Translations under genes and position numbers: made by a program
Shown: in pieces, positions 4,775 through 49,281 of the stretch
How positions within the stretch are numbered: the first letter of the stretch is position 1
Layout of the letters: every line of letters starts with the position of its first letter
From: Bacilli bacterium
GTDB taxonomy: Bacteria; Bacillota_I; Bacilli_A; RF39; UBA660
Reading direction: 5' to 3'
DNA length: 64,000 nt
Assembly (NCBI GenBank): GCA_017612805.1
Contig: JAGAFD010000005.1
Coordinates: 10,130 to 74,129 of the forward strand
The notes under the pieces: model-generated
What the model was told of the DNA's origin: nothing
Database searches by the model: none
The model's input: the letters and a program-made list of their open reading frames with translations, nothing else

Positions 4775-6625
4775 TTATTGATCTAAAATAATACGTGCTC
4801 CACGAGTTAATCCTGCTTGTTGACTATCATAAACATTAATTCTAAATAAACCAGAAATATAACGACTTGAAGAAAAATCGCCACCATACATTAATGGATG
4901 ATTACCTGTCCAAGTAATGGAATGATCACCAATATAAGTTGATTCAGTACCACCAAATTCAGAAGCTACCATTATTTTTGAATAATTACTATCAAATGAT
5001 AATGTTTTAATATATTCGTGTAATCCACCATTATTACCTACATAAACATTAGTTGCTTCATAACAACCATCAGTTTTATTATCAACATAATCACGTGGAC
5101 TATAACAAATATAAGCTTGATAATTTTTAAAATTAATGCCATCAACATAAGTCCAAACATTACCGTAAAGGTTTTCAATACCACGATAAATATTAGGTTG
5201 GGCAATACCAATAACACTATCAGAATAATAACCAGACTTCATTCCGTATTGATCGGTTAATCCTGATGGTGGTGCCGAAATACGCATTGCATAAGAAGTA
5301 TCATAATTTAAATTATTATAATCCAGTGTAATTTTTTTTCCAGTGATATTACCATTACTATAATCTTCAATAGCTACTACTTTAAGATTATATAGTTCAC
5401 GGGTTTTATCAGAAGTTGTAGAAATAATATTAACATAATAACCTGGTTTAGTATGCCATGAATTAGCAACAATTACATAGTTTGAATTAACCGCAGCTTC
5501 TAAAAGTTTACGATTACCATTAGATAATTCCACGATTCCATAACCTAAAACACTTTGGGCATTATAGTTAGCATATTCCACTAAAAATAACATATAAATA
5601 TTAAATAGGCGATGATCAAATTGGGTAAATTTAGGCCCTAAAGCATAAGCTTGCGTTCTAAACCAACCTGGTTGACGATTAATCTCAATAGATGAACCAC
5701 TTTGACTAGTTAACTTTGTACCATCAAAACCAACATGATAACGTGATACTGAAAATGCCTCACTCTTAGTAAATCCTTCAACAGGATCACGACTAATTTC
5801 AATATATTCATAATCACCTTCACGATAACGATGATAATAAAACTCCGGAATATAAGTCATTACTAAACCATTAGAACCATCAAATTTAAAATTATCATCA
5901 CCAATAATACCAGCTTCTCTACCCGTAGTTAAATCATAATTATAACTATAAATATCACTCCATGGATAAATATAATCAAAAGCATTAGCAGAAACATTAT
6001 TTCCAACTATTGGATTAGCTACTAAAGCCGTACTATCTTTAATACGTTCCCAAGTAGTAGTTGATGCCGTAACATCTTTTTTAATACCATATATTTTTGA
6101 ATTATAAATATCCGATACTTGAATTGTACCAGTAATTGTTTTAGCTTCATCAACTGTTTGATCTAAATAAGAATTATTATAAGTAATGGTCATTGTATAA
6201 TCTTGCGTAGTATCAGGTTCAATCACAATATCTTTTAAAAGTAAGGCATCACTAGTTGGATAAATGGCATTAGTAACGCTACCCCCATTATTCGTTGAAG
6301 TAATAGTATAAGTTAAATCCGGATATCTGGTTAATTCATTATAAACATCCGTTAAAAAGATTTGATAAGTAATATTACCAGTACCAGTATTAGTAACACT
6401 AAACTTCTTAATTACTTGTTGGCCAGGTAATACTTCATTTATAACAATTGAATTAGTTTCCGAATAATTTAAATTTAAATATGGTGATTTAACAGTGGTT
6501 TGTGGTAAATCCGTAGCTAGAAAAATACTTGATCCATAATAAGCATATGAAAAACCAGCAATTGCTACAATTACTGCGATAACAATTATAATAATTAACC
6601 ATTTCTTATAATTCTTATTCTTCAT
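4775..6625 (-). CDS. N-terminally membrane-anchored extracellular protein, function unknown
   Basis: 616 aa. The N-terminus is MKNKNYKKWLIIIIVIAVIVAIAGFSY (signal/anchor). The rest is rich in T, S, N, Y and G. I recognise no catalytic motif. Confidence 0.55.
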   Translation of the reverse strand: MKNKNYKKWLIIIIVIAVIVAIAGFSYAYYGSSIFLATDLPQTTVKSPYLNLNYSETNSIVINEVLPGQQVIKKFSVTNTGTGNITYQIFLTDVYNELTRYPDLTYTITSTNNGGSVTNAIYPTSDALLLKDIVIEPDTTQDYTMTITYNNSYLDQTVDEAKTITGTIQVSDIYNSKIYGIKKDVTASTTTWERIKDSTALVANPIVGNNVSANAFDYIYPWSDIYSYNYDLTTGREAGIIGDDNFKFDGSNGLVMTYIPEFYYHRYREGDYEYIEISRDPVEGFTKSEAFSVSRYHVGFDGTKLTSQSGSSIEINRQPGWFRTQAYALGPKFTQFDHRLFNIYMLFLVEYANYNAQSVLGYGIVELSNGNRKLLEAAVNSNYVIVANSWHTKPGYYVNIISTTSDKTRELYNLKVVAIEDYSNGNITGKKITLDYNNLNYDTSYAMRISAPPSGLTDQYGMKSGYYSDSVIGIAQPNIYRGIENLYGNVWTYVDGINFKNYQAYICYSPRDYVDNKTDGCYEATNVYVGNNGGLHEYIKTLSFDSNYSKIMVASEFGGTESTYIGDHSITWTGNHPLMYGGDFSSSRYISGLFRINVYDSQQAGLTRGARIILDQ

Positions 6626-6702
6626 AGTATCATCAATTTTTATTATATAATAATTATCTATTTATCACAACATTTATATGGTAAAATAAAGCTGGTGATA
6701 CC

Positions 6703-7611
6703 ATGTTTAAGTATTCATTAGATAACAAAAGATATCATACTTTAAACTATTATTATAAAAATAAATACCATCAAAAAATTGTTAAAATCCCGGTTGATTT
6801 GGGGACATCTTGCCCTAATAAAATTAATGGTGGTTGTATCTTCTGTGATGGTGATTTTGCATGTCCTAAATCAACTGCTTCAATTAAAGAGCAATTTTTA
6901 AAAAATAAGACCGTTATTGATCATAAATGGCCTAATAGTGGCTATGTTATTTATTTTCAAAATGGTACTAATACCTATGGTGATTTTAAGAAATTAACCG
7001 CTAAAATAAATGAAGCACTTACTATCCCTAACGTTTTTGGTATTACAATTGCTACACGTCCCGATTGTATCAATAATAATTGGATAACCTATTTTAAAGA
7101 ATTAAATCAAAAAACGGATTTGATTATTGAACTTGGTTTGCAAAGTATGCATAATGAGACTTTAAAACTAATTAATCGTGGTCATTCTAGAGAAGATTTT
7201 GATAAATGTGTTAAATTATTAAAGAAACATCATATTAAAGTAGTGGCTCATATCATTAATGGTCTTCCTTATGAAACCAAAGAAATGATGATTGATACGG
7301 CTAAATACTTAAACGATTTAGGTATTGATGGTATTAAGATTCATATGTTATATGTTAATAAAAATACCCTTTTAGCTACCTGGTTAAAAGAGGATAAATT
7401 TAAGTTATTAACTAAAGAAGCATATATCGATATTGTTGCTAATCAACTAACCTATCTCGATCCCAAAATTGTTATTCACCGTATTACTGGCGATCCTGAT
7501 TTAAAAGCCTTAATAGCTCCTACTTTCTTAATTAAAAAAGTATCACTAACTAATGATATTGATAAATATATGAAAGAACATGATTTATATCAAGGTTGCA
7601 ATTTAAAATAA
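6703..7611 (+). CDS. radical SAM protein, TIGR01212/YtqA-like family
   Basis: Carries a CxxxCxxC-type cluster, CPNKINGGCIFCDG, and YtqA-like overall similarity. Confidence 0.7.
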   Translation: MFKYSLDNKRYHTLNYYYKNKYHQKIVKIPVDLGTSCPNKINGGCIFCDGDFACPKSTASIKEQFLKNKTVIDHKWPNSGYVIYFQNGTNTYGDFKKLTAKINEALTIPNVFGITIATRPDCINNNWITYFKELNQKTDLIIELGLQSMHNETLKLINRGHSREDFDKCVKLLKKHHIKVVAHIINGLPYETKEMMIDTAKYLNDLGIDGIKIHMLYVNKNTLLATWLKEDKFKLLTKEAYIDIVANQLTYLDPKIVIHRITGDPDLKALIAPTFLIKKVSLTNDIDKYMKEHDLYQGCNLK

Positions 7612-40938: not shown

Positions 40939-41763
40939 CTATTTAACAATGAATAATTGTTTATCTTTTTCTAATTCTTTTAAACTTTTATTTGGTTTTG
41001 GTAAATCTTCTGGCATCGTGCCATTTAATTCTTTAATCGTTTCTCGAACCTTTTTCCCTACTTCATAATGGGTTTTAATAGCTTTAGCTTCCCCTTTAAT
41101 TTTATCATTTTTAAGTTTGGAATCTGTATGAGTAATTCTAAATAAATTATCAACTAATTCTTCACTTCCCATATTATCCAAAATATCTTCACGATATCTT
41201 AATCCTTTACGTCTTGCAATATCATCAGCTGTTTCACCATTATATAACCCTTTGTATCCAGCATTATGAAATTTATCAAAATTTTTAACACCTGCTTCTT
41301 TGGCAGTTTGATTTAAACTTTTATTATGCTTTTTAGTTAGATTTCTTTGATATATTCGTTTTTCATCTTCACTAAGTTCATTATACTCTTTTTCAAATAA
41401 TTCTTGTTTTCTTGTTTGAATAGCAAAATAAGTTTGGCCTAAGGCTACAACCGGTTTAGAAGAATCAGAATTTTGAACTATTAAATAACATGCATATCTG
41501 GTTAATCTATAATCATTTAATATTCTTTTAGCATTTGAACCTATTTTTACCATTACGTCCATTTGGGCGAAATGGTTTTCAATATTTAAAGCACTCTTTT
41601 CACAAGAGATAATAGCTTTTTTAATAGAAGGAAAAAATTTTCTATATTCACTATATTCTAATGTTTTCCCTAACTCTCTTGCTAACCAATATTCATTACC
41701 ACTTTCATCAATATGTTTAATATTTTCAAATATTTTGTCTGTATATTCTTTTATTTCATTCAT
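40939..41763 (-). CDS. dinD: DNA-damage-inducible protein D (DinD) homologue
   Basis: 274 aa. Close to E. coli DinD along its whole length: YWLARELGKTLEYSEYRKF..., VVALGQTYFAIQTRKQEL, GTMPEDLPKPNKSLKELE. Confidence 0.75.
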   Translation of the reverse strand: MNEIKEYTDKIFENIKHIDESGNEYWLARELGKTLEYSEYRKFFPSIKKAIISCEKSALNIENHFAQMDVMVKIGSNAKRILNDYRLTRYACYLIVQNSDSSKPVVALGQTYFAIQTRKQELFEKEYNELSEDEKRIYQRNLTKKHNKSLNQTAKEAGVKNFDKFHNAGYKGLYNGETADDIARRKGLRYREDILDNMGSEELVDNLFRITHTDSKLKNDKIKGEAKAIKTHYEVGKKVRETIKELNGTMPEDLPKPNKSLKELEKDKQLFIVK

Positions 41764-41924: not shown

Positions 41925-41948
41925 AATAAAAAATAAGAAGAATTACTT
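41925..41948 (-). terminator. intrinsic terminator
   Basis: AAGAAGTAATTCTTCTT followed by U-run on the minus strand. Confidence 0.55.
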
Positions 41949-42221
41949 CTTATTTTCTTTATCTAAATTTTTAAATGGATGTTTAATACGAGTTTTAATA
42001 GCATTAACAATTATTGAAGAAGTAATATCATAAATACGATTAGCTTCTTCTTCATCTACATTAAGATTTTCCATTAAAGCAATAATTGTTTTACATTTAT
42101 TGCTTTTACCAAATAAGAAGTTATCTTCTAATGATTCACTAATAATAATTGCTTTATCATGTGGATAACCAGTTTGCTTTTCCACTTCTGCAATAAATCC
42201 TCTTTTATTCATTACTATCAC
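41943..42221 (-). CDS. hypothetical small protein
   Basis: 92 aa. Overlaps the upstream XRE-TM gene by 17 nt. Confidence 0.4.
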   Translation of the reverse strand: MIVMNKRGFIAEVEKQTGYPHDKAIIISESLEDNFLFGKSNKCKTIIALMENLNVDEEEANRIYDITSSIIVNAIKTRIKHPFKNLDKENKK

Positions 42222-43128
42222 CGTACATTTTACCTTTAGAATCTAGTTGAATTTCATAACCATATTCAAAGATATAAGAAATAACAAAGATAATTAAGAT
42301 TTCTACTAAGTTAAACATTTCTAGTGAAATATCTAAATCTTTATGTAAGATTATTTCAAATATTGAACCAGTTACATTAGGTAGAATAATTAATGCAATC
42401 ATTAAGTAAGCTATTTTTTTAATATGTTCAACATTTTCTAAAGTAAATGGTGTATCACCATTATGAATATTATTAAATAACTTTTCTACTCTTTTAAGCA
42501 TTAATATTAATAATACTAATGAAGCTATTAATACGATAGAAGCTGTTTCACAATATCCAATTAATAAACCTTTGTTATTAATGTTATCTTCAACTACATC
42601 TTTAATCATTGCTATTTTTTCTTTATCACTTTCAACAGCAATAATAGATTTTTTACGTTTAATAATTAACTCATTATTCTCTTCTACTACTTCAATAATT
42701 TTAGTATTATTAGAAATAATCTTACCATCCTTAATATCAATATTTTTAATTGCTATTGGAAGTAATACAGCAACTATTCCAATTAATACTGCTCCAACTA
42801 TTGATGCAATCCATCCAATTTTAGATAATACTGATATTATCTTAGATAATACCTTTACTTTCTTTTGTTTTTGTTTTTTAAACTTAACAACACTCATTTT
42901 AACTTCTTCATCTAATGAATTAATGTCTGACATATCTTCATGTACTAATTCATTAATTTGACATTTAAAAATAGTACATAAACACATAATATTAGTCATA
43001 CTAGGATAATTTTCACCAGTTTCCCATTTAGATACTGATTGTCTAGATACTCCTAACTTATCTGCTAATTCCTCCTGAGATATTTTTCTCATCTTTCTCA
43101 CTCTTTTAAGATTGTCTCCAAATTTCAT
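42205..43128 (-). CDS. XRE-family HTH regulator fused to membrane-spanning C-terminal region
   Basis: An N-terminal HTH, ISQEELADKLGVSRQSVSKWETGEN, followed by several TM helices. Confidence 0.6.
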   Translation of the reverse strand: MKFGDNLKRVRKMRKISQEELADKLGVSRQSVSKWETGENYPSMTNIMCLCTIFKCQINELVHEDMSDINSLDEEVKMSVVKFKKQKQKKVKVLSKIISVLSKIGWIASIVGAVLIGIVAVLLPIAIKNIDIKDGKIISNNTKIIEVVEENNELIIKRKKSIIAVESDKEKIAMIKDVVEDNINNKGLLIGYCETASIVLIASLVLLILMLKRVEKLFNNIHNGDTPFTLENVEHIKKIAYLMIALIILPNVTGSIFEIILHKDLDISLEMFNLVEILIIFVISYIFEYGYEIQLDSKGKMYGDSNE

Positions 43129-43191
43129 TAGACTTCTCTCCTTTCATGCCCTAAGTTTAATAAAAACCAACAATTATTACTATCAACTTTT

Positions 43192-43224
43192 AAGTGCATT
43201 TTATAAATTTAATAAATTGCACTT
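43192..43224. promoter_or_regulatory. inverted repeat, candidate operator upstream of XRE-TM gene
   Basis: AAGTGCATTT-N13-AAATTGCACTT. The arms AAGTGCA / TGCACTT pair. Confidence 0.4.
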
Positions 43225-43312
43225 ATATCTTTACATAAATATTGCTTTTTTATCAAATACACTAAATAATCTAAAAATATATATTAATCATTTAAAAATG
43301 ATAACATTACAC

Positions 43313-44347
43313 TTAAAAATCTATAACATGATTATATAATTGATATTTTTTATTTGAATAATCTATTTTATTATCTAAAGCCAATCTATATAATACGAAA
43401 CACTTAGGATATTTTTCCTCATTATCAATGTTATAACAATCATTATTAACAATACTCATATAATATTCGTCAGATACCATCCAATTTAATGATTGTTTAT
43501 CAGCTTTATCTTCAAATTTTTCGTTTTCAAAAGATATTAAATTTGTGGCTTTAGCCATATTAAAATCACTCTTACAATGTGCCAATTCATGTAATAAAGC
43601 AAAATATATATCTGCAATTCTCTTATACTTTCGGGTTAAATAAATAGCAGGAGTTTCCTTATTGACTTTAAATGCGCCTCGAATCTTAGATCCTGGTAAA
43701 TCATCTTGAATTACGAGTTGAATTCCATTTTTATTAAACTTTTCAATTAATTTTTTTTCATCAAACAAATCATTCTTAGCATTATCTTTTATAAATTCCA
43801 CTAAAGAATCTATATTACTTTTATCATATTGGCCAAGAACCTGATTACTTGCAATTCTATAACATCTCTCTAGCCATATCATAAGCATTTCTGGTTTATC
43901 ATTCTTACTTTTATATAATATATTTTTATCTAATTTATACAAACTATCAGGTGCTGAAACCCTTAAATATTTAAGAATATCCATTAATGATGTCATTTTA
44001 TTATCTACATGAACAAATTTTATCCAATTACTTTTTAATAGCTCTCTATATGAAAATTTATTTAAATATTGAGTAAGCGTTATCTCATTCTTATTCAAGA
44101 AATTTATAATTTCACATTCCATTCTATAATTTTCTTCTATTTTTAAAATATACTCAGCTGGGATATCAGTAACGATGGAAATAGATTGAATTATTGAAGA
44201 AGATAATTCAATGTTACCTGATAATAAATCAATTAAATGCTTAGGGGAAATGCCGATTCTTGCAGCAAATTCCTTATTAGATATATTGTGCTCATTTAAA
44301 TAATCTTTCAAAATATCAACAAAACGCACATGTGCCATTTCTATCAC
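43313..44347 (-). CDS. HTH (XRE) + ImmA/IrrE-family (COG2856) zinc metallopeptidase fusion, HigA-like antitoxin
   Basis: An N-terminal HTH, NKEFAARIGISPKHLIDLLSGN, and an HEXXH at FALLHELAHC. The start is either GTG at 44347 or ATG at 44338. Confidence 0.65.
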   Translation of the reverse strand: MIEMAHVRFVDILKDYLNEHNISNKEFAARIGISPKHLIDLLSGNIELSSSIIQSISIVTDIPAEYILKIEENYRMECEIINFLNKNEITLTQYLNKFSYRELLKSNWIKFVHVDNKMTSLMDILKYLRVSAPDSLYKLDKNILYKSKNDKPEMLMIWLERCYRIASNQVLGQYDKSNIDSLVEFIKDNAKNDLFDEKKLIEKFNKNGIQLVIQDDLPGSKIRGAFKVNKETPAIYLTRKYKRIADIYFALLHELAHCKSDFNMAKATNLISFENEKFEDKADKQSLNWMVSDEYYMSIVNNDCYNIDNEEKYPKCFVLYRLALDNKIDYSNKKYQLYNHVIDF

Positions 44348-44358
44348 CCTTAATCTTT

Positions 44359-44691
44359 TTAAATATTTCTTAAATATCTTTTAAAATCTTCATAATGTTC
44401 ATCAGAAATATATTCGAGTCTAATAGAATAATTATCAGGGCAAGAAAACAAAAGCCTTAATTTTCCACTTTTACTATTCTTATCAATAGAAAATCTATAA
44501 TAACCTGTCAAATCACCTTTCAATTCCTCAAAACCATATTGATCAGATATTACATGGTTTTTTAAATCTTTAAAATCATGTACAACCTCCATATGACTTA
44601 ACACTTTATTTAGTTTATCCATAGCATCATAATTTTTCTTGATTTTTTTTAAGCTATTTTTATACCCAGTTGTAAGTTCAGAAATAATCAT
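44359..44691 (-). CDS. HigB-like (RelE/ParE superfamily) toxin
   Basis: 110 aa. ELKGDLTGYYRFSIDKNSKSGKLRLLF parallels HigB HPLKGDREGYWSITVRANWRITFQF. It sits 11 nt upstream of the HTH-peptidase gene. Confidence 0.55.
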   Translation of the reverse strand: MIISELTTGYKNSLKKIKKNYDAMDKLNKVLSHMEVVHDFKDLKNHVISDQYGFEELKGDLTGYYRFSIDKNSKSGKLRLLFSCPDNYSIRLEYISDEHYEDFKRYLRNI

Positions 44692-44931
44692 GAAAAATAA
44701 AAACTCCTTTCCTCTTCTTTACTCTTTCATATCTATCCTATCATTCCTCTACGTATACGTATATATATTAACATTAAGGTTAATATATGTCAATAATTAA
44801 ATGATTAAAAAACTAATCTAACATTATTATTTTTTATCTTCAATTTTTAAACGCAAATAGTAATTATCGTGTTCATGATAACATAATTGAATTAATTATT
44901 AATTCATATAAAAAAGCAGGATTTCTCCTAC

Positions 44932-46806
44932 CTATATTTTTGATTTGAAATATTTTTGTAATTCAAGATCTGTACAATAAACATAACAACCTTTCAGACC
45001 TCTAGTCATTAATGTTCTATATGTATTTTTTATTATAGAGTCTGCTATTCTATTTGCTTCTTCTTGTCCCTTTTCTAAAGCTATTTTATTTATGCCTTTT
45101 AATGATTGATCTGTTTTTGCTCTTTTTGTATAATCTGTAACTATTTGACCATTTTCATACCTCATATCATCGCCAATAATAACACCAACATAATCAAACT
45201 CTAATCCTTGGCATGTATGAATACATCCAGCTTCATTAACAGACTCTGGATCAATAGCATATGTTTGAGAATTAGCTAAGTTCCAACTCATTTCAAAATT
45301 ATATTCAGGTATTACAATATCATGAACAGTAGTCTTAGCTTTACCTTCACTAATCCAGTCCCAACAGTAACCTGCAACTATTCTAGATTTATTATTTATT
45401 GTATTTTTTTCTTCAATAGTTCTTCTCATTTCATTTGGATCATCAAAAACTTTAAAATCATAATCAAATCCATCGATATCAAAATTTGCAGTTTCTCTTA
45501 TTTCTAATAGATTATCTAACCAGGCGATGTAGCCATCTGAACCATTGCATCTAAATTGACTGTCTAATTCATAAATATAAATACCAGCATCTAATTCTCT
45601 TGCATATTGCTTTATTAAATCTTCACTACCAATATCTTTTAGTGTTACTTTTTGATTTTCATCTATAAAGAATATTGAAAATTTAGAAGCATTAATTATT
45701 TCTTTAATTTGGTTTTCACCTTTATTTTGAAATAATCCAGATTTAGCATTTAATCGATGTGCCTCATCCACTACTAATACATCCAATTTATTACTTTCTT
45801 CATTAACAAAATTACCAGACCCTTGAAATAAATGATTAATATAAGTTTGAGTAAAATCTCCTCTTAATTTAGCTGCAAATACATTTCTAGGTGCAGCATT
45901 TTTTGTTACATAAAAGCATGTCATATTTCTATTATTAAACTCAACTAATAAATTAATGGCCAATACTGACTTACCAGTTCCTGGTCCACCTCTAACAATC
46001 ATTACATTTTTCTTGTTATTAGCAACAGTATCAATTGCATTACTTATTGCATATTCATAAATAACTTTTTGATCATCAATCATATAAAATTCTTTATTAC
46101 CATGTAACATTTGTGATAAAGAATCTTGAAGCATCTTTGATGGTCTAATTCTTCCATGATCAATTTCATATAGAATACTTCCATCATCACCACTTGATAT
46201 ATATTTTTTAATAAAGTCTCTTAATTTAATAACATCATTATGTCCAAATAAAGGAGCCTTATCAGTATATTCTTTATAATTATCAGATAATAATGTATCA
46301 TCATTTTCAAAATAATAATTATGCAAATAAGCACAAGGTATAACATTAATGTCTTTTAGTTGAACAGATTCATTATAATCTTTAATTAAGTTAGCATAAG
46401 TCATGGCTTGGTATGAAGGATGGTTTACATCTCTAAGTCCTCCACCCACAAATGTATTAACCTTATAAATACCATCTAGGTAAGCAACTTCAGTAGCTTT
46501 ATCCCATTGCTTTAGCTCAATTATAATTACATTAGATTTGTCATTGTTAAATCCAGACATCATAAAATCTATTCTACATCCAGTTGGTGGAATATTATAT
46601 TCAATAGCTATACCAGTATTATCCGGTATTTCATTATCACTTAATACACCTCTCATATATTGCATAGAATTCTTCCAAGAATTAAATTCGGGTGAACTTG
46701 GTCTTCTTTTAATCTTTTCAATATATTTATTTCTTATCTTATCAGCTATTATTCCTAAATCTACATCATTAATAAATCCTGATTTTATCCCTTCATATAC
46801 TAACAT
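44932..46806 (-). CDS. DUF2075-type protein with an N-terminal PD-(D/E)xK nuclease-like domain and an SF1-helicase-like ATPase
   Basis: The N-terminus reads ...RIDFMM...VIIIELKQWD (D...ExK). Walker A is RGGPGTGKS and Walker B is DVLVVDEAHRL. The helicase motif is CQGLEFDYVGVI. Confidence 0.65.
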   Translation of the reverse strand: MLVYEGIKSGFINDVDLGIIADKIRNKYIEKIKRRPSSPEFNSWKNSMQYMRGVLSDNEIPDNTGIAIEYNIPPTGCRIDFMMSGFNNDKSNVIIIELKQWDKATEVAYLDGIYKVNTFVGGGLRDVNHPSYQAMTYANLIKDYNESVQLKDINVIPCAYLHNYYFENDDTLLSDNYKEYTDKAPLFGHNDVIKLRDFIKKYISSGDDGSILYEIDHGRIRPSKMLQDSLSQMLHGNKEFYMIDDQKVIYEYAISNAIDTVANNKKNVMIVRGGPGTGKSVLAINLLVEFNNRNMTCFYVTKNAAPRNVFAAKLRGDFTQTYINHLFQGSGNFVNEESNKLDVLVVDEAHRLNAKSGLFQNKGENQIKEIINASKFSIFFIDENQKVTLKDIGSEDLIKQYARELDAGIYIYELDSQFRCNGSDGYIAWLDNLLEIRETANFDIDGFDYDFKVFDDPNEMRRTIEEKNTINNKSRIVAGYCWDWISEGKAKTTVHDIVIPEYNFEMSWNLANSQTYAIDPESVNEAGCIHTCQGLEFDYVGVIIGDDMRYENGQIVTDYTKRAKTDQSLKGINKIALEKGQEEANRIADSIIKNTYRTLMTRGLKGCYVYCTDLELQKYFKSKI

Positions 46807-46816
46807 ACTAACCTCA

Positions 46817-47698
46817 TTACATATTACTTAATTCATTAGCAATAGATTTTCTTCTTTTTTCTCGTTCTAGATTTGCTAATTTTTGAATAAGTATTTCCTC
46901 TAAAGCACATTTTAATATTGGAAATATTTCTTGACATTCTTCTTCTGATAAATTATGTATTCCATCACTCACCCTAGCATAAATTATATTAAACCCATTC
47001 TCAAATAATAAGGATGGTAAATATTTTTTTAATTTTTTTACTCGATCTTCGATACGATAATGCAAAAATTCATCTTCAGAAAAATCTAAATTATCTTTAT
47101 TGTCATTGAAACAATCTATTAATAATTTTTCAAATATTCTTCTTAAATATATTAAAGCGCCAATACATGTATTAAAACTATATAATGAACATGCTTTCTT
47201 ATAATATCCAGCATATTCATTCCCTAATTCCTTTATAAAAGGCTTATTGTTTATTTCTTCATTTAAATCATAAATAGATGGATATTGTCCTATTTTCAAT
47301 ATCCTATCATTTGATAAAACTTTAAAATCAACAATTAAAGAATGCCCACAATCACCACAACCTATTATCCTAAAATAATCTTTACCTCTCAATTCATCAG
47401 CTGCTGATGCTTGTTTTCCTTGAATACTCATACTTATCCATGCATAAGAAGAATTATGTAATGTGAATATTCTTCTTTGTTTACATAAATTACAATAACA
47501 TTCAATTTTTAAATTGTTATACGGAAAAAACTTATAATTTGCAACCTTCGTATTAACAGACATTGGCTTATATAATGGATATAATAACATTTTTTCATTA
47601 ATAAATGAATTTGTCATGTCATTAGCGGTTATATTATTTCTATTGTGGAAATCTAATTCTTGTATTGTTATCATTTCAATATTATTATCTCTATTCAT
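46817..47698 (-). CDS. Zn-ribbon (CxC-x2-C...C-x2-C) protein with DUF4145-like helical C-terminal domain
   Basis: Cysteine cluster CYCNLC...CGDCGH. The alpha-helical C-terminus resembles DUF4145. GAGGTG RBS. Confidence 0.45.
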   Translation of the reverse strand: MNRDNNIEMITIQELDFHNRNNITANDMTNSFINEKMLLYPLYKPMSVNTKVANYKFFPYNNLKIECYCNLCKQRRIFTLHNSSYAWISMSIQGKQASAADELRGKDYFRIIGCGDCGHSLIVDFKVLSNDRILKIGQYPSIYDLNEEINNKPFIKELGNEYAGYYKKACSLYSFNTCIGALIYLRRIFEKLLIDCFNDNKDNLDFSEDEFLHYRIEDRVKKLKKYLPSLLFENGFNIIYARVSDGIHNLSEEECQEIFPILKCALEEILIQKLANLEREKRRKSIANELSNM

Positions 47699-47710
47699 AA
47701 AACACCTCGA

Positions 47711-48025
47711 TTATAATTTTGTATATTTTGTACTTTTTCCTTTTGATTTTTCAACAGGATATTTTTTTGCTGTCTTTTCCATTTTATCTAAAACTATTTG
47801 TTTCGGATCTACTCCTAATTTATCCGCCATCAATATGCAATAATTTATTACATCAGCAAGTTCTTCTTTAACTTCATCTAAATCATATTCATTATTCCAT
47901 TGAAAACATTCTAATAATTCACCTGCTTCAATGCAAATACTCTTTGCTAAATTTTCAGGTGAATGAAATTGATCCCAATCACGTTCTTTAGTAAATTCGA
48001 CAACCTTTTCCCTTAATTCTTGCAT
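47711..48025 (-). CDS. MazG-like all-alpha NTP pyrophosphohydrolase
   Basis: 104 aa with EAGELLE and ELADVINYCILMADKLGVD motifs. AGGTGG RBS. Confidence 0.65.
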   Translation of the reverse strand: MQELREKVVEFTKERDWDQFHSPENLAKSICIEAGELLECFQWNNEYDLDEVKEELADVINYCILMADKLGVDPKQIVLDKMEKTAKKYPVEKSKGKSTKYTKL

Positions 48026-48043
48026 TATAAACCACCTAATTCA

Positions 48044-48052
48044 ATTATACCA
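48044..48052 (-). promoter_or_regulatory. extended -10 promoter (TGgTATAAT) for the 3-gene operon
   Basis: The minus strand reads cttaTGgTATAATtgaattAGGTGGtttataATG. Confidence 0.5.
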
Positions 48053-48067
48053 TAAGAAATATTAGAA

Positions 48068-48095
48068 AAATAAAAAACGTTCATATTATGAACGT
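48068..48095 (-). terminator. intrinsic terminator after the Mrr-cat gene
   Basis: AACGTTCATAATATGAACGTT followed by UUUUUAUUUUU on the minus strand. Confidence 0.6.
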
Positions 48096-48476
48096 TTATT
48101 TCATTACTTCAATATATTCTTCAATTTTTTCATTATCAATAATAGTTATATTTAATCTAGCTGCTGCTTCTTTAGCATTAACACTAACTTCATCATTACT
48201 AATGATAATACCAAAACCAACTTTTTCTCTTTCCATATCTTGTACAGTTTCTTCTATTTCGCGCATTGTTATTTTTTTATTTAAATAAGTTTGAACTGTA
48301 TACATAACATTATCTTTTTTAGCTAACATATCATTATCATTAGTAGGGTCATCATCAGATAATCTAGCATCATCTAACGTTACTGGAAAATAACCATGTT
48401 TTAATAATACTGCTTGAATATAATTTCTAAATTCCCTACTATCTATAAAGTTATCAATAATCCCTATATCTTCCAT
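48096..48476 (-). CDS. stand-alone Mrr-cat-like restriction endonuclease domain protein
   Basis: 126 aa. DNDMLAKKDNVMYTVQT...GFGIIISNDEVSVNAKEAAARLNITIIDNEKIEEY matches the Mrr catalytic-domain pattern. Confidence 0.55.
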   Translation of the reverse strand: MEDIGIIDNFIDSREFRNYIQAVLLKHGYFPVTLDDARLSDDDPTNDNDMLAKKDNVMYTVQTYLNKKITMREIEETVQDMEREKVGFGIIISNDEVSVNAKEAAARLNITIIDNEKIEEYIEVMK

Positions 48477-48534
48477 ATCTTAATCACCTATAATGATTAT
48501 AGCATAATTCGTTATTATTCAATGTTTATATGAT

Positions 48535-49281
48535 TTATTTTTTTGTATATTTACACTTTGGATAATTAGAACATCCAATAAATTTTCCATACTTACTTTT
48601 TCTTTCAACTAATTGTCCACCACATTTTGGGCATTTATTAGGATCTTTATCTATTACATTTTTTCTAATATTTCTAATATGTTCCTTTTTTATCTTTTTA
48701 TCAATGATATTATTTCTATTAATTATATTAACAATTAAACTTACATCATCAATAATAACATCTTTGTATGATAATATTTTATCAACAATAGTATCGTATC
48801 TTACTAACTCTCCATCATGTTGAATCTTTAAAGTTGCTTTACTAGGAATACATACAATATTATATATTTTTGATTCATCAACATTTAATAATTCTGATAG
48901 TGCTTTTACGTGACCATAGTTCTGTCTAATTGGATTAGAATAATAATACTTATTCTTTCCAACATGTCTTATCCAATATTTATCATATTTATTACCAGTA
49001 ATAAAACCATTATATTGTTTAGTTTCTACAGAAAATATACCATATGGTGAAACTATCACATGATCTATTTGATGAGTATTACCATTCGTTTTTATAAATA
49101 CATCATTTATAACTATATATTTATCTTTTGGTAATTTTTTTAGCGCTTGTTTTGTCCAAAGCTCACCAAACCAGCCAATTATTTTTTTAGAATAAATAAC
49201 TAATAATATATCGATTATAATAAATAAGATAACAAATGGATTAGTTAAAAAAGTAATTATTACTTTAATAAAATCAGCCAT
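48535..49281 (-). CDS. NERD-domain nuclease-related protein with C-terminal topoisomerase-type C4 zinc finger
   Basis: An N-terminal TM, a NERD core (GELWTKQALKKL...HQIDHVIVSPYGIFSVETKQYNG), and a C-terminus CPKCGGQLVERKSKYGKFIGCSNYPKC. Confidence 0.6.
   Translation of the reverse strand: MADFIKVIITFLTNPFVILFIIIDILLVIYSKKIIGWFGELWTKQALKKLPKDKYIVINDVFIKTNGNTHQIDHVIVSPYGIFSVETKQYNGFITGNKYDKYWIRHVGKNKYYYSNPIRQNYGHVKALSELLNVDESKIYNIVCIPSKATLKIQHDGELVRYDTIVDKILSYKDVIIDDVSLIVNIINRNNIIDKKIKKEHIRNIRKNVIDKDPNKCPKCGGQLVERKSKYGKFIGCSNYPKCKYTKK

Follow-up and report, generated by a model that had tools for sequence, protein, structure and literature searches.

Operons that join a RelE-type protein to an Xre helix-turn-helix (HTH) protein carrying an M78 peptidase raise two questions, namely what the protease cleaves and which of the two partners is the toxin. 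Both arise for a gene pair at positions 43,313 to 44,691 of the DNA analysed here, a 64,000-nt stretch of contig JAGAFD010000005.1 from a Bacilli bacterium (assembly GCA_017612805.1), hereafter the window. The gene of the small protein is called A, and that of the large HTH-peptidase protein B (lengths in amino acids, aa):

44359..44691, minus strand: gene A, 110 aa, putative mRNA-interferase toxin of the RelE/ParE superfamily (YoeB/YafQ/HigB-like)
43313..44347, minus strand: gene B, HTH-peptidase fusion, 344 aa from a GTG start, putative antitoxin and autorepressor

We consider it probable that the two genes form an autonomous, autoregulated type II-like toxin-antitoxin (TA) cassette, with A as the toxin, B as the antitoxin and autorepressor, and the protease as the trigger. 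The basis is in silico: folds and domains, conservation of catalytic motifs, autonomy of the cassette, its promoter and operator, and an asymmetric pattern of decay.

The gene pair and its decay

The first-pass annotation of the locus had described a 110-aa open reading frame (ORF) followed, after 11 nt, by a 344-aa ORF, and exactly these coordinates were recovered from the ORF list, in which the intergenic distance is 11 nt with the GTG start of B. The pair was compared with relatives collected by a pattern scan using one genome per species. This gave 80 loci, nearly all from metagenome-assembled genomes (MAGs) of gut or rumen Bacilli and Clostridia, the Bacilli including genomes labelled Mollicutes, Tenericutes or Mycoplasmatota. 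Gene clustering placed A directly upstream of B, on the same strand, in 56 of the 80, and in all loci with an intact A the gap between the genes is -23 to +30 nt, except for L077 (104 nt). The 80 loci have no third gene in common, every other flanking position being taken by unrelated genes. Because the A-B adjacency recurs while the flanks are unrelated, the pair is a two-gene cassette that is autonomous and mobile. Neither ORF is a chance one: both encode conserved proteins, and the two genes are adjacent in most of the loci. B has more than 573 homologues. For A there are 15 close homologues, and clustering at 50% identity leaves about 55 representatives of its family out of 1.84 billion, which makes the family narrow. 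Identical copies of the window cassette are present on 10 contigs.

Hidden Markov models (HMMs) of A and B were run against six-frame translations of the loci, 76 of which were assessable:

B intact, A intact: 52 loci
B intact, A absent: 8 loci
B intact, A with a frameshift, nonsense mutation or internal deletion: 8 loci
B intact, A with partial coverage only: 5 loci
B broken, A partial, absent or split: 3 loci
B broken, A intact: 0 loci

A is lost or broken beside an intact B in at least 16 loci. Frameshifts, deletions and a TAG nonsense codon are among its lesions, of which only one lies in a homopolymer run, and 9 of the 11 intragenic lesions fall in A although B is a threefold mutational target (binomial P ~1e-4). 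In L070, by comparison with the syntenic L051, the coding region of A has been deleted cleanly, leaving the operator, the last ~20 nt of A (which carry the ribosome-binding site of B) and B itself. Loss of a toxin with retention of its antitoxin is the classic pattern of TA decay. Because A decays beside an intact B and never the reverse, the pattern indicates that A is the harmful partner and that B is harmless or even useful alone at native expression, which fits A as the toxin and B as the antitoxin and autorepressor. The assignment of toxin and antitoxin made in the first-pass annotation is therefore supported by comparative genomics, through the autonomy of the cassette, its conserved operator and the decay of A only. 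An alternative genetic code as the cause of the broken A genes was rejected: only one lesion is a TGA, the others being TAG codons, frameshifts and deletions, and TGA also terminates many long ORFs in the loci that carry the pair.

Eight loci (L008, L011, L024, L043, L044, L050, L054 and L070) hold an orphan B with an intact HEXXH motif. The promoter and operator are kept where this was checked, in L008 and L044 and, in a variant form, in L070. Going by their differing syntenies, these loci look like at least five independent losses of A, and the orphan copies of B may be anti-addiction factors or regulators.

The genes that flank the cassette are mostly housekeeping genes (tRNA synthetases, LytR, GTPases, ABC transporters), with a few integrase, AbiEii-like, Fic and Panacea genes among them. 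The copy in the window adjoins defence-like genes; a steady link of the family with defence islands was nevertheless rejected, since the neighbours are mostly housekeeping. An immunity module of a prophage or of an integrative and conjugative element was likewise rejected, in view of only three weak phage matches and of integrases making up 3 of 140 neighbouring genes. The hallmarks of type II TA systems found here are a compact co-oriented operon, a patchy mobile distribution and a palindrome in the promoter, the predicted operator. One 8-kb contig (L005, Clostridiales UBA7001) carries two A-B cassettes, at 128-1484 and 5427-6788, one typical and the other far more divergent (B at E 1e-74, A at E 6e-11), which suggests paralogous expansion.

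Protein A, protein B and the shared promoter

The signature from which A had been called HigB/RelE-like, LKGDLTGYYRFSI...LRLLF, is found in its sequence. Sequence searches of Pfam, NCBIfam and the PDB with A gave noise only (cofilin, fructose-bisphosphatase), and its identity was therefore taken from structure and from scans of family members. The proposed check against HigB and RelE models was negative, with no match at E <= 1 to the Pfam models HigB-like_toxin (PF05015), HigB_toxin (PF09907), YoeB_toxin, YafQ_toxin and ParE_toxin or to those of NCBIfam; PADLOC gave no match of any kind at E <= 1, and a PHROG 'toxin of TA system' profile matched weakly (0.0015). The AlphaFold model, built with 15 homologues, is confident (predicted local distance difference test, pLDDT, 86), and Foldseek ranked HigB structures first, at probability 0.97-1.0. 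In this model A would adopt the alpha/beta microbial-RNase-like fold of RelE/ParE, in which helices from the N-terminus pack against an antiparallel sheet, and would have an additional helix at its C-terminus. The RelE/HigB-like identity of A thus holds at the level of fold and profile, and the lack of RelE-fold similarity that had been named as fatal to the proposal was not what the model and Foldseek gave. The label 'HigB-like' is acceptable in the sense of a predicted RNase-type toxin fold of the RelE superfamily, A being at least as close to YafQ and YoeB as to HigB.

An alignment of 50 sequences, mostly ORFs upstream of B in the related loci, shows R79, L80 and Y100 of A to be invariant and K15, Y52, E55, K71, G76, H99 and D102-F103 to be kept in at least 90%. 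Searched against the PDB, the family profile matched the YoeB of Staphylococcus aureus best, if weakly (E ~0.3); in this alignment E55 falls on the glutamate of PE.L and R79 on the arginine of RLVY. The catalytic set of YoeB consists of Glu46, Arg65, His83 and Tyr84, acting in acid/base catalysis and phosphate binding, and E55, R79 and the near-C-terminal pair H99-Y100 of A appear to resemble it. Taken singly, the relatives of A match YoeB_toxin (8 of 50), HigB-like_toxin (7 of 50, best 1.1e-4) and YafQ_toxin (5 of 50) at E <= 0.1. A profile search of the 1.84 billion representatives did not reach canonical HigB, returning 55 relatives of A only. One of these homologues in the representative library, the 173-aa P0145, has an N-terminal extension of ~60 residues. 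In the subgroup L045-L076 (e.g. L051:5667-6002), the C-terminus of A is a conserved (V/L/I)(I/R)(Y/F)YDE tail, and the gene runs 23 nt into the start of B; the overlap implies translational coupling, and the tail is perhaps a clade-specific contact.

Protein B has an HTH at its N-terminus and a zinc peptidase at its C-terminus, the FALLHELAHC motif reported for the latter being present as described:

44147..44311, minus strand: XRE HTH domain of B, HigA-like, aa 13-67 (Pfam HTH_3, 3.5e-7)
43448..43846, minus strand: zinc-peptidase core of B, ImmA/IrrE/CapP-type (M78), about aa 168-300 (PADLOC, Pfam in relatives, Foldseek)
43577..43591, minus strand: HELAH zinc-binding/catalytic motif of B, H253, E254 and H257 (from the sequence)
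44344..44349, minus strand: Shine-Dalgarno-like GGGTGA for B, read from the sequence, 5 nt upstream of the ATG at 44338

The 344-aa length holds for the GTG start that was listed, but the ATG at 44338 is the likelier one. B would then probably have 341 aa and lie 20 nt from A, because the GTG sits within the GGGTGA, public annotations have a 341-aa protein, and at least 90% of the relatives retain Met4.

The AlphaFold2 (AF2) model of B is confident (pLDDT 89.9). The top PDB sequence matches of the HTH are HigA antitoxins (E 0.006), and Foldseek aligned it with many HigA structures at probability 1.0 and target template-modelling (TM) scores of 0.67-0.87; against TIGR02607 it scored 18.1 bits, under the cutoff of 47.7. 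Together with HTH_3, the HigA matches in sequence and fold support the HigA-like XRE HTH that had been proposed. The COG2856-type (ImmA/IrrE) peptidase proposed for the C-terminus is supported in turn by PADLOC, by the Foldseek matches to CapP and IrrE and by the invariant HEXXH. Rank 1 for B in Foldseek was CapP (7t5t), a protease associated with the cyclic-oligonucleotide-based anti-phage signalling system (CBASS), at E 3.4e-3 and probability 1.0 over 172 columns, and IrrE (3dti, probability 0.97) and an HTH-COG2856 regulator of Mycobacterium tuberculosis (6d2s, probability 0.92) were matched as well, the TM scores of the peptidase matches being low as only part of each chain aligns. The PADLOC profile PD-Lambda-2_B (PDLC03982) matched aa 10-297 of B over positions 61-342 of 402 at 3.1e-23, and RmrA matched aa 168-285 at 2.7e-7. 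The suggested check against Peptidase_M78 (PF06114) had a divided outcome: the window protein gave no match at E <= 1, while 21 of 59 relatives matched at E <= 0.1 (best 8.8e-5), none at the Pfam cut-off.

H253, E254 and H257 are invariant in 75 of 75 relatives. E279 and D283 (E-D-K-A-D283) are kept in 74 of 75, within an E..AD motif reminiscent of the one that supplies the third ligand in ImmA/IrrE, and E279 is the probable third zinc ligand. Because the HEXXH is invariant and the downstream E..AD motif nearly so across the relatives, the peptidase looks catalytically active and under strong purifying selection. The sole low-confidence stretch of the model is aa 141-153 (window ~43889-43927; block mean pLDDT 54). 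Its loop Y144-KSKNDKPE-153 holds the invariant K146, S147, N149 and E153, and this predicted flexible yet conserved loop (144-153) could be a site of cleavage or of partner binding. Precomputed PF10463 labels, carried by many relatives, and a PADLOC Lit match (0.002, aa 248-294) had suggested kinship of B with Lit/Peptidase_U49. A specific kinship was rejected: the PADLOC match spans the HEXXH helix only, and Peptidase_M78 but not PF10463 was hit in our own Pfam scan of the 59 relatives at E <= 0.1.

The region upstream of A contains the elements expected of a self-regulated operon:

44763..44788, unstranded: palindromic operator, 26 bp (13 + 13 nt), an inverted repeat between -35 and -10 (putative operator)
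44766-44785, unstranded: operator core TATTAAC-N6-GTTAATA, conserved in relatives
44765..44793, minus strand: sigma-70-type promoter preceding A, with TTGACA at 44788-44793, a 17-nt spacer and a TG-extended TAATAT at 44765-44770
44914..44933, minus strand: terminator-like hairpin ending the upstream helicase operon, the only terminator-like site in 43000-45100

This promoter is the top-scoring promoter-like site of the region on the minus strand, with 10 of 12 matches and the TG, and since the hairpin ends the helicase operon upstream, A and B form a separate transcription unit. The family consensus is TTGACAta-TATTAAC-N6-GTTAATA-tat(gt), and the extended operator site is the 30-bp ACATATATTAAC-N6-GTTAATATATGT. 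The layout is kept in relatives even where the identity of A is only ~30%. In 50 of the 80 loci the exact 14-base core is present as a single copy, which always precedes A by 15-110 nt or, if A is missing, lies directly before B. The 64-kb window contains a single perfect match; extra operator copies that could control other genes were found neither in the window nor in the related loci. The palindrome is what would be expected of the operator of a dimeric HTH autorepressor that blocks its own promoter, and we infer that B binds it. A second short palindrome, TACGTATACGTA, lies at 44750-44763, just downstream of the -10 box, with no evident conservation in the relatives aligned.

Proposed mechanism, known systems and rival explanations

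In the mechanism proposed here, free A would be an endoribonuclease of the RelE/YoeB fold, presumably ribosome-dependent, that halts translation. B, probably as a dimer, would bind the 12-N6-12 palindrome over the -35/-10 region through its HigA-like HTH and so repress the operon, and it would also keep A harmless. By analogy with ImmA/ImmR, IrrE/DdrO and CapP/CapH, the most likely trigger would be the fused M78 zinc peptidase. Upon a stress or phage cue, B might cut B, in cis or in trans, splitting or destroying the HTH or the toxin-binding part; the operon would then be derepressed and A freed, with growth arrest or abortive infection as the outcome. The toxicity and RNase activity of A, direct A-B binding, the substrate of the protease and the trigger signal are what we infer in this scheme. 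The protease-gated switch suggested in the first-pass annotation is a plausible proposal. The M78 relatives with a known substrate cleave XRE repressors (ImmA cleaves ImmR, IrrE cleaves DdrO and CapP cleaves CapH), the cue being DNA damage or single-stranded DNA. Because every such relative does so, self-cleavage would be the simplest extension to a protein in which protease and HTH are fused.

A more specific version of this scheme is offered only tentatively. B would be a single-chain, self-cleaving repressor-protease, equivalent to a fused ImmR and ImmA or CapH and CapP, that serves as the antitoxin of a YoeB-like RNase. One cut, for which the 144-153 loop is a candidate, would upon a DNA-damage or phage cue both relieve repression at the operator and set the toxin free; the reverse of the polarity reported for PD-λ-2 would apply, and the orphan copies of B would be anti-addiction or immunity factors.

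Several points weigh against the favoured toxin-antitoxin model. A lies below every curated toxin threshold, no RelE or HigB model of Pfam, NCBIfam or PADLOC being matched at E <= 1, and the equivalence of its putative catalytic residues follows from a weak profile alignment (E ~0.3) and from fold similarity. Identity to the window proteins is 25-47% for A and 45-62% for B, so that A diverges faster, and a toxin that diverges faster than its antitoxin is unusual for type II TA pairs. Some of the lesions in A could be assembly errors of the MAGs, one of them (L014) lying within a homopolymer run. B lacks the GAF sensor domain used by IrrE and CapP, and its self-cleavage is argued purely by analogy. 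Finally, the polarity is the opposite in the one tested system that has a homologue of B, PD-λ-2: PD-λ-2B alone was toxic when overexpressed, and PD-λ-2A rescued.

The first-pass annotation had stated that Xre-COG2856 pairs are predicted as TA-like modules, and this is true of the 2009 paper of Makarova, Wolf and Koonin (PMC2701414), in which operons of a RelE or PIN toxin with an Xre-COG2856 fusion were predicted and a protease-controlled repressor circuit was proposed. The architecture of A-B is exactly that of these operons, and is hence not new. On plasmids of Arthrobacter, Thauera and the cyanobacterium Chondrocystis, a RelE/ParE toxin of ~99 aa lies directly upstream of a distant but full-length homologue of B (363-382 aa) that is already annotated as a HigA antitoxin. 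These long HigA proteins have only 21-25% identity to B, and alignment of A with the plasmid toxins by hhalign found only the local motif FE.LKG...S.RLN..RL (E 0.001, probability 20%). Unlike the plasmid pairs, the A-B lineage is found mainly in gut Bacilli and Clostridia MAGs, below the thresholds of curated models.

HigBA of Proteus vulgaris, Escherichia coli and Streptococcus pneumoniae shares with A-B the toxin-first order, a RelE-fold toxin and an XRE-HTH antitoxin, which is expected to autorepress through a palindromic operator. Compared with HigA, however, B is ~240 residues longer and carries an active-looking metallopeptidase, and compared with HigB, whose C-terminus has D-Y-H, A has a YoeB-type H-Y motif and the extra C-terminal helix; neither A nor B reaches the cutoffs of the HigB and HigA models. 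In RosmerTA (RmrT/RmrA; Millman et al. 2022), the antitoxin RmrA is an Xre HTH joined to a Zn peptidase, and ΔrmrA was unobtainable, which fits its antitoxin role. RmrT is an unrelated toxin of unknown fold with a reported membrane effect, whereas A has a predicted RelE fold, and the system is not matched here: the RmrA profile covers only part of B, and the locus has no RmrT match. ImmA/ImmR (of ICEBs1), IrrE/DdrO (Deinococcus) and CapP/CapH (CBASS and other immune operons) resemble B in combining an M78 peptidase with an XRE repressor, whose cleavage derepresses a promoter. They are split over two proteins, while B fuses both functions in one chain, and what they control is a mobile element, a repair regulon or a CBASS operon, in place of the RelE-type toxin of B.

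The closest tested system is PD-λ-2, an experimentally validated anti-phage defence system of E. coli (Vassallo et al. 2022, PMC9519451). In it, too, a small RelE/HigB-like protein is followed by a HigA-like HTH with a C-terminal ImmA/IrrE peptidase, and B is homologous to PD-Lambda-2_B along almost its whole length. Nevertheless, judged from the sequences, the locus is not PD-λ-2 as defined, because it has no C component and A is unmatched by PD-Lambda-2_A. PD-λ-2C, a P4-antitoxin-like protein needed for defence, has no counterpart among 15 neighbouring window proteins or conserved in the 80 loci, and A is structurally nearer to YafQ and YoeB. The polarity also differs: A looks toxic here from the comparative data, while in PD-λ-2 it was B that was toxic on overexpression.

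The main rival explanation, which we regard as improbable, is that the polarity is as in PD-λ-2: the peptidase of B would be a lethal effector that cuts an essential host protein, as Lit cuts EF-Tu, and A a degenerate toxin serving as inhibitor or sensor. The rescue experiment with PD-λ-2 speaks for it, as do the match of B to the PD-Lambda-2_B profile (3e-23), the strict conservation of its HEXXH, the weak Lit-like match at the HEXXH helix (PADLOC 0.002) and the PF10463 labels of many relatives. However, at least 16 loci combine an intact B with a deleted or broken A, one of them through a clean deletion, so that lone B is tolerated natively. A moreover keeps a YoeB-like catalytic set under purifying selection, which would be needless in an inert inhibitor, and it has no match to the PD-Lambda-2_A model. 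According to the literature, stand-alone COG2856 proteins of S. pneumoniae are non-toxic on overexpression. Toxicity of an overexpressed B would not contradict the favoured toxin-antitoxin model.

The remaining explanations are less likely than the favoured one. B could be mainly a stress-sensing transcription factor, a single-chain ImmR/ImmA or CapH/CapP acting on defence or mobile-element genes nearby, and A would then play a minor, accessory part, but this is unlikely. The top fold match of its peptidase part is indeed CapP, the CapP/CapH, IrrE/DdrO and ImmA/ImmR systems all consist of a protease and an XRE repressor, the window pair lies among defence-like genes, and orphan B genes retain the operator. 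The operator core, however, is present as one copy per locus, confined to the promoter of the cassette itself; the flanks vary from locus to locus and are mostly housekeeping, a terminator divides the cassette from the helicase operon upstream, and the phage matches are three weak ones.

We give little credence, also, to an enzymatic antitoxin, in which the peptidase of B would constantly degrade A instead of sequestering it and stress would inhibit the protease. Conservation of the protease active site in every B, the fast evolution of A and the A-only decay would fit this scheme too; yet it is without precedent among the known RelE-family systems, the M78 relatives with known substrates cut XRE repressors, and the fusion of HTH and peptidase would be left unexplained. 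That the window cassette is an inert, decaying remnant without current function is very improbable: A does decay in a sizeable minority of related loci, but in the window both genes are full length and keep every conserved residue, the promoter/operator is intact, ribosome-binding sites are in place, and identical copies stand on 10 contigs.

Surroundings of the window copy and meaning for the family

Upstream of the cassette, at 44932-46806 on the minus strand, the window encodes a protein of 624 aa whose C-terminal part is a Schlafen-group-3/DUF2075 helicase domain (Pfam, 6.5e-108). It also matches the PADLOC profiles AbiO and Nhi (1e-16 and 1e-15), and its N-terminal ~240 aa contain a D...ELK stretch, a possible PD-(D/E)xK nuclease motif. 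A 293-aa Cys-rich protein, matched by a PHROG 'DNA binding protein' profile (1e-6), is encoded 10 nt upstream of the helicase gene (46817-47698, minus strand), and the two genes look like a separate, Nhi-like two-gene defence operon. Next to them, on the same strand, stand three small genes in a row (47711-49281), each with a domain linked to defence or conflict: a MazG-like gene (47711-48025), an Mrr_cat restriction endonuclease (48096-48476) and a NERD nuclease (48535-49281) fused to a topoisomerase-type zinc ribbon. These defence-like genes, the helicase operon and the TA cassette make up an island of ~10 kb beside lipid-metabolism genes.

On the other side, also on the minus strand, a gene for an XRE-HTH protein with a fused DUF2975 membrane domain (42205-43128) shares 17 nt with a 92-aa ORF (41943-42221) for which no family match was obtained. 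Located 184 nt downstream of B, these two could be a further small pair of regulatory or TA-like type. Beyond it, a 274-aa BRO-N-domain protein (40939-41763, minus strand) matches the PADLOC candidate defence family PDC-S13 along nearly its entire length (3.9e-101) and a 'Type I specificity subunit' profile (6.7e-80).

The cassette is a divergent example of an architecture already described and not a new kind of system, given the prediction of 2009, the test of PD-λ-2 in 2022 and the plasmid pairs of a RelE/ParE toxin with an annotated long HigA; the present analysis contributes a conserved operator, a decay restricted to the toxin gene and a polarity that contrasts with that of PD-λ-2. In other respects A-B is a toxin-antitoxin module of the ordinary sort. 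Neither of its halves is recognised by curated HMM libraries in the gut Bacilli MAGs in which the cassette is common. The family provides a clean comparative set, with a sharp operator, a strict protease site and natural knock-outs of A only, and these knock-outs argue that the RelE-fold protein is the dangerous partner at native expression. It would thus be a convenient two-gene model for protease-gated toxin release.

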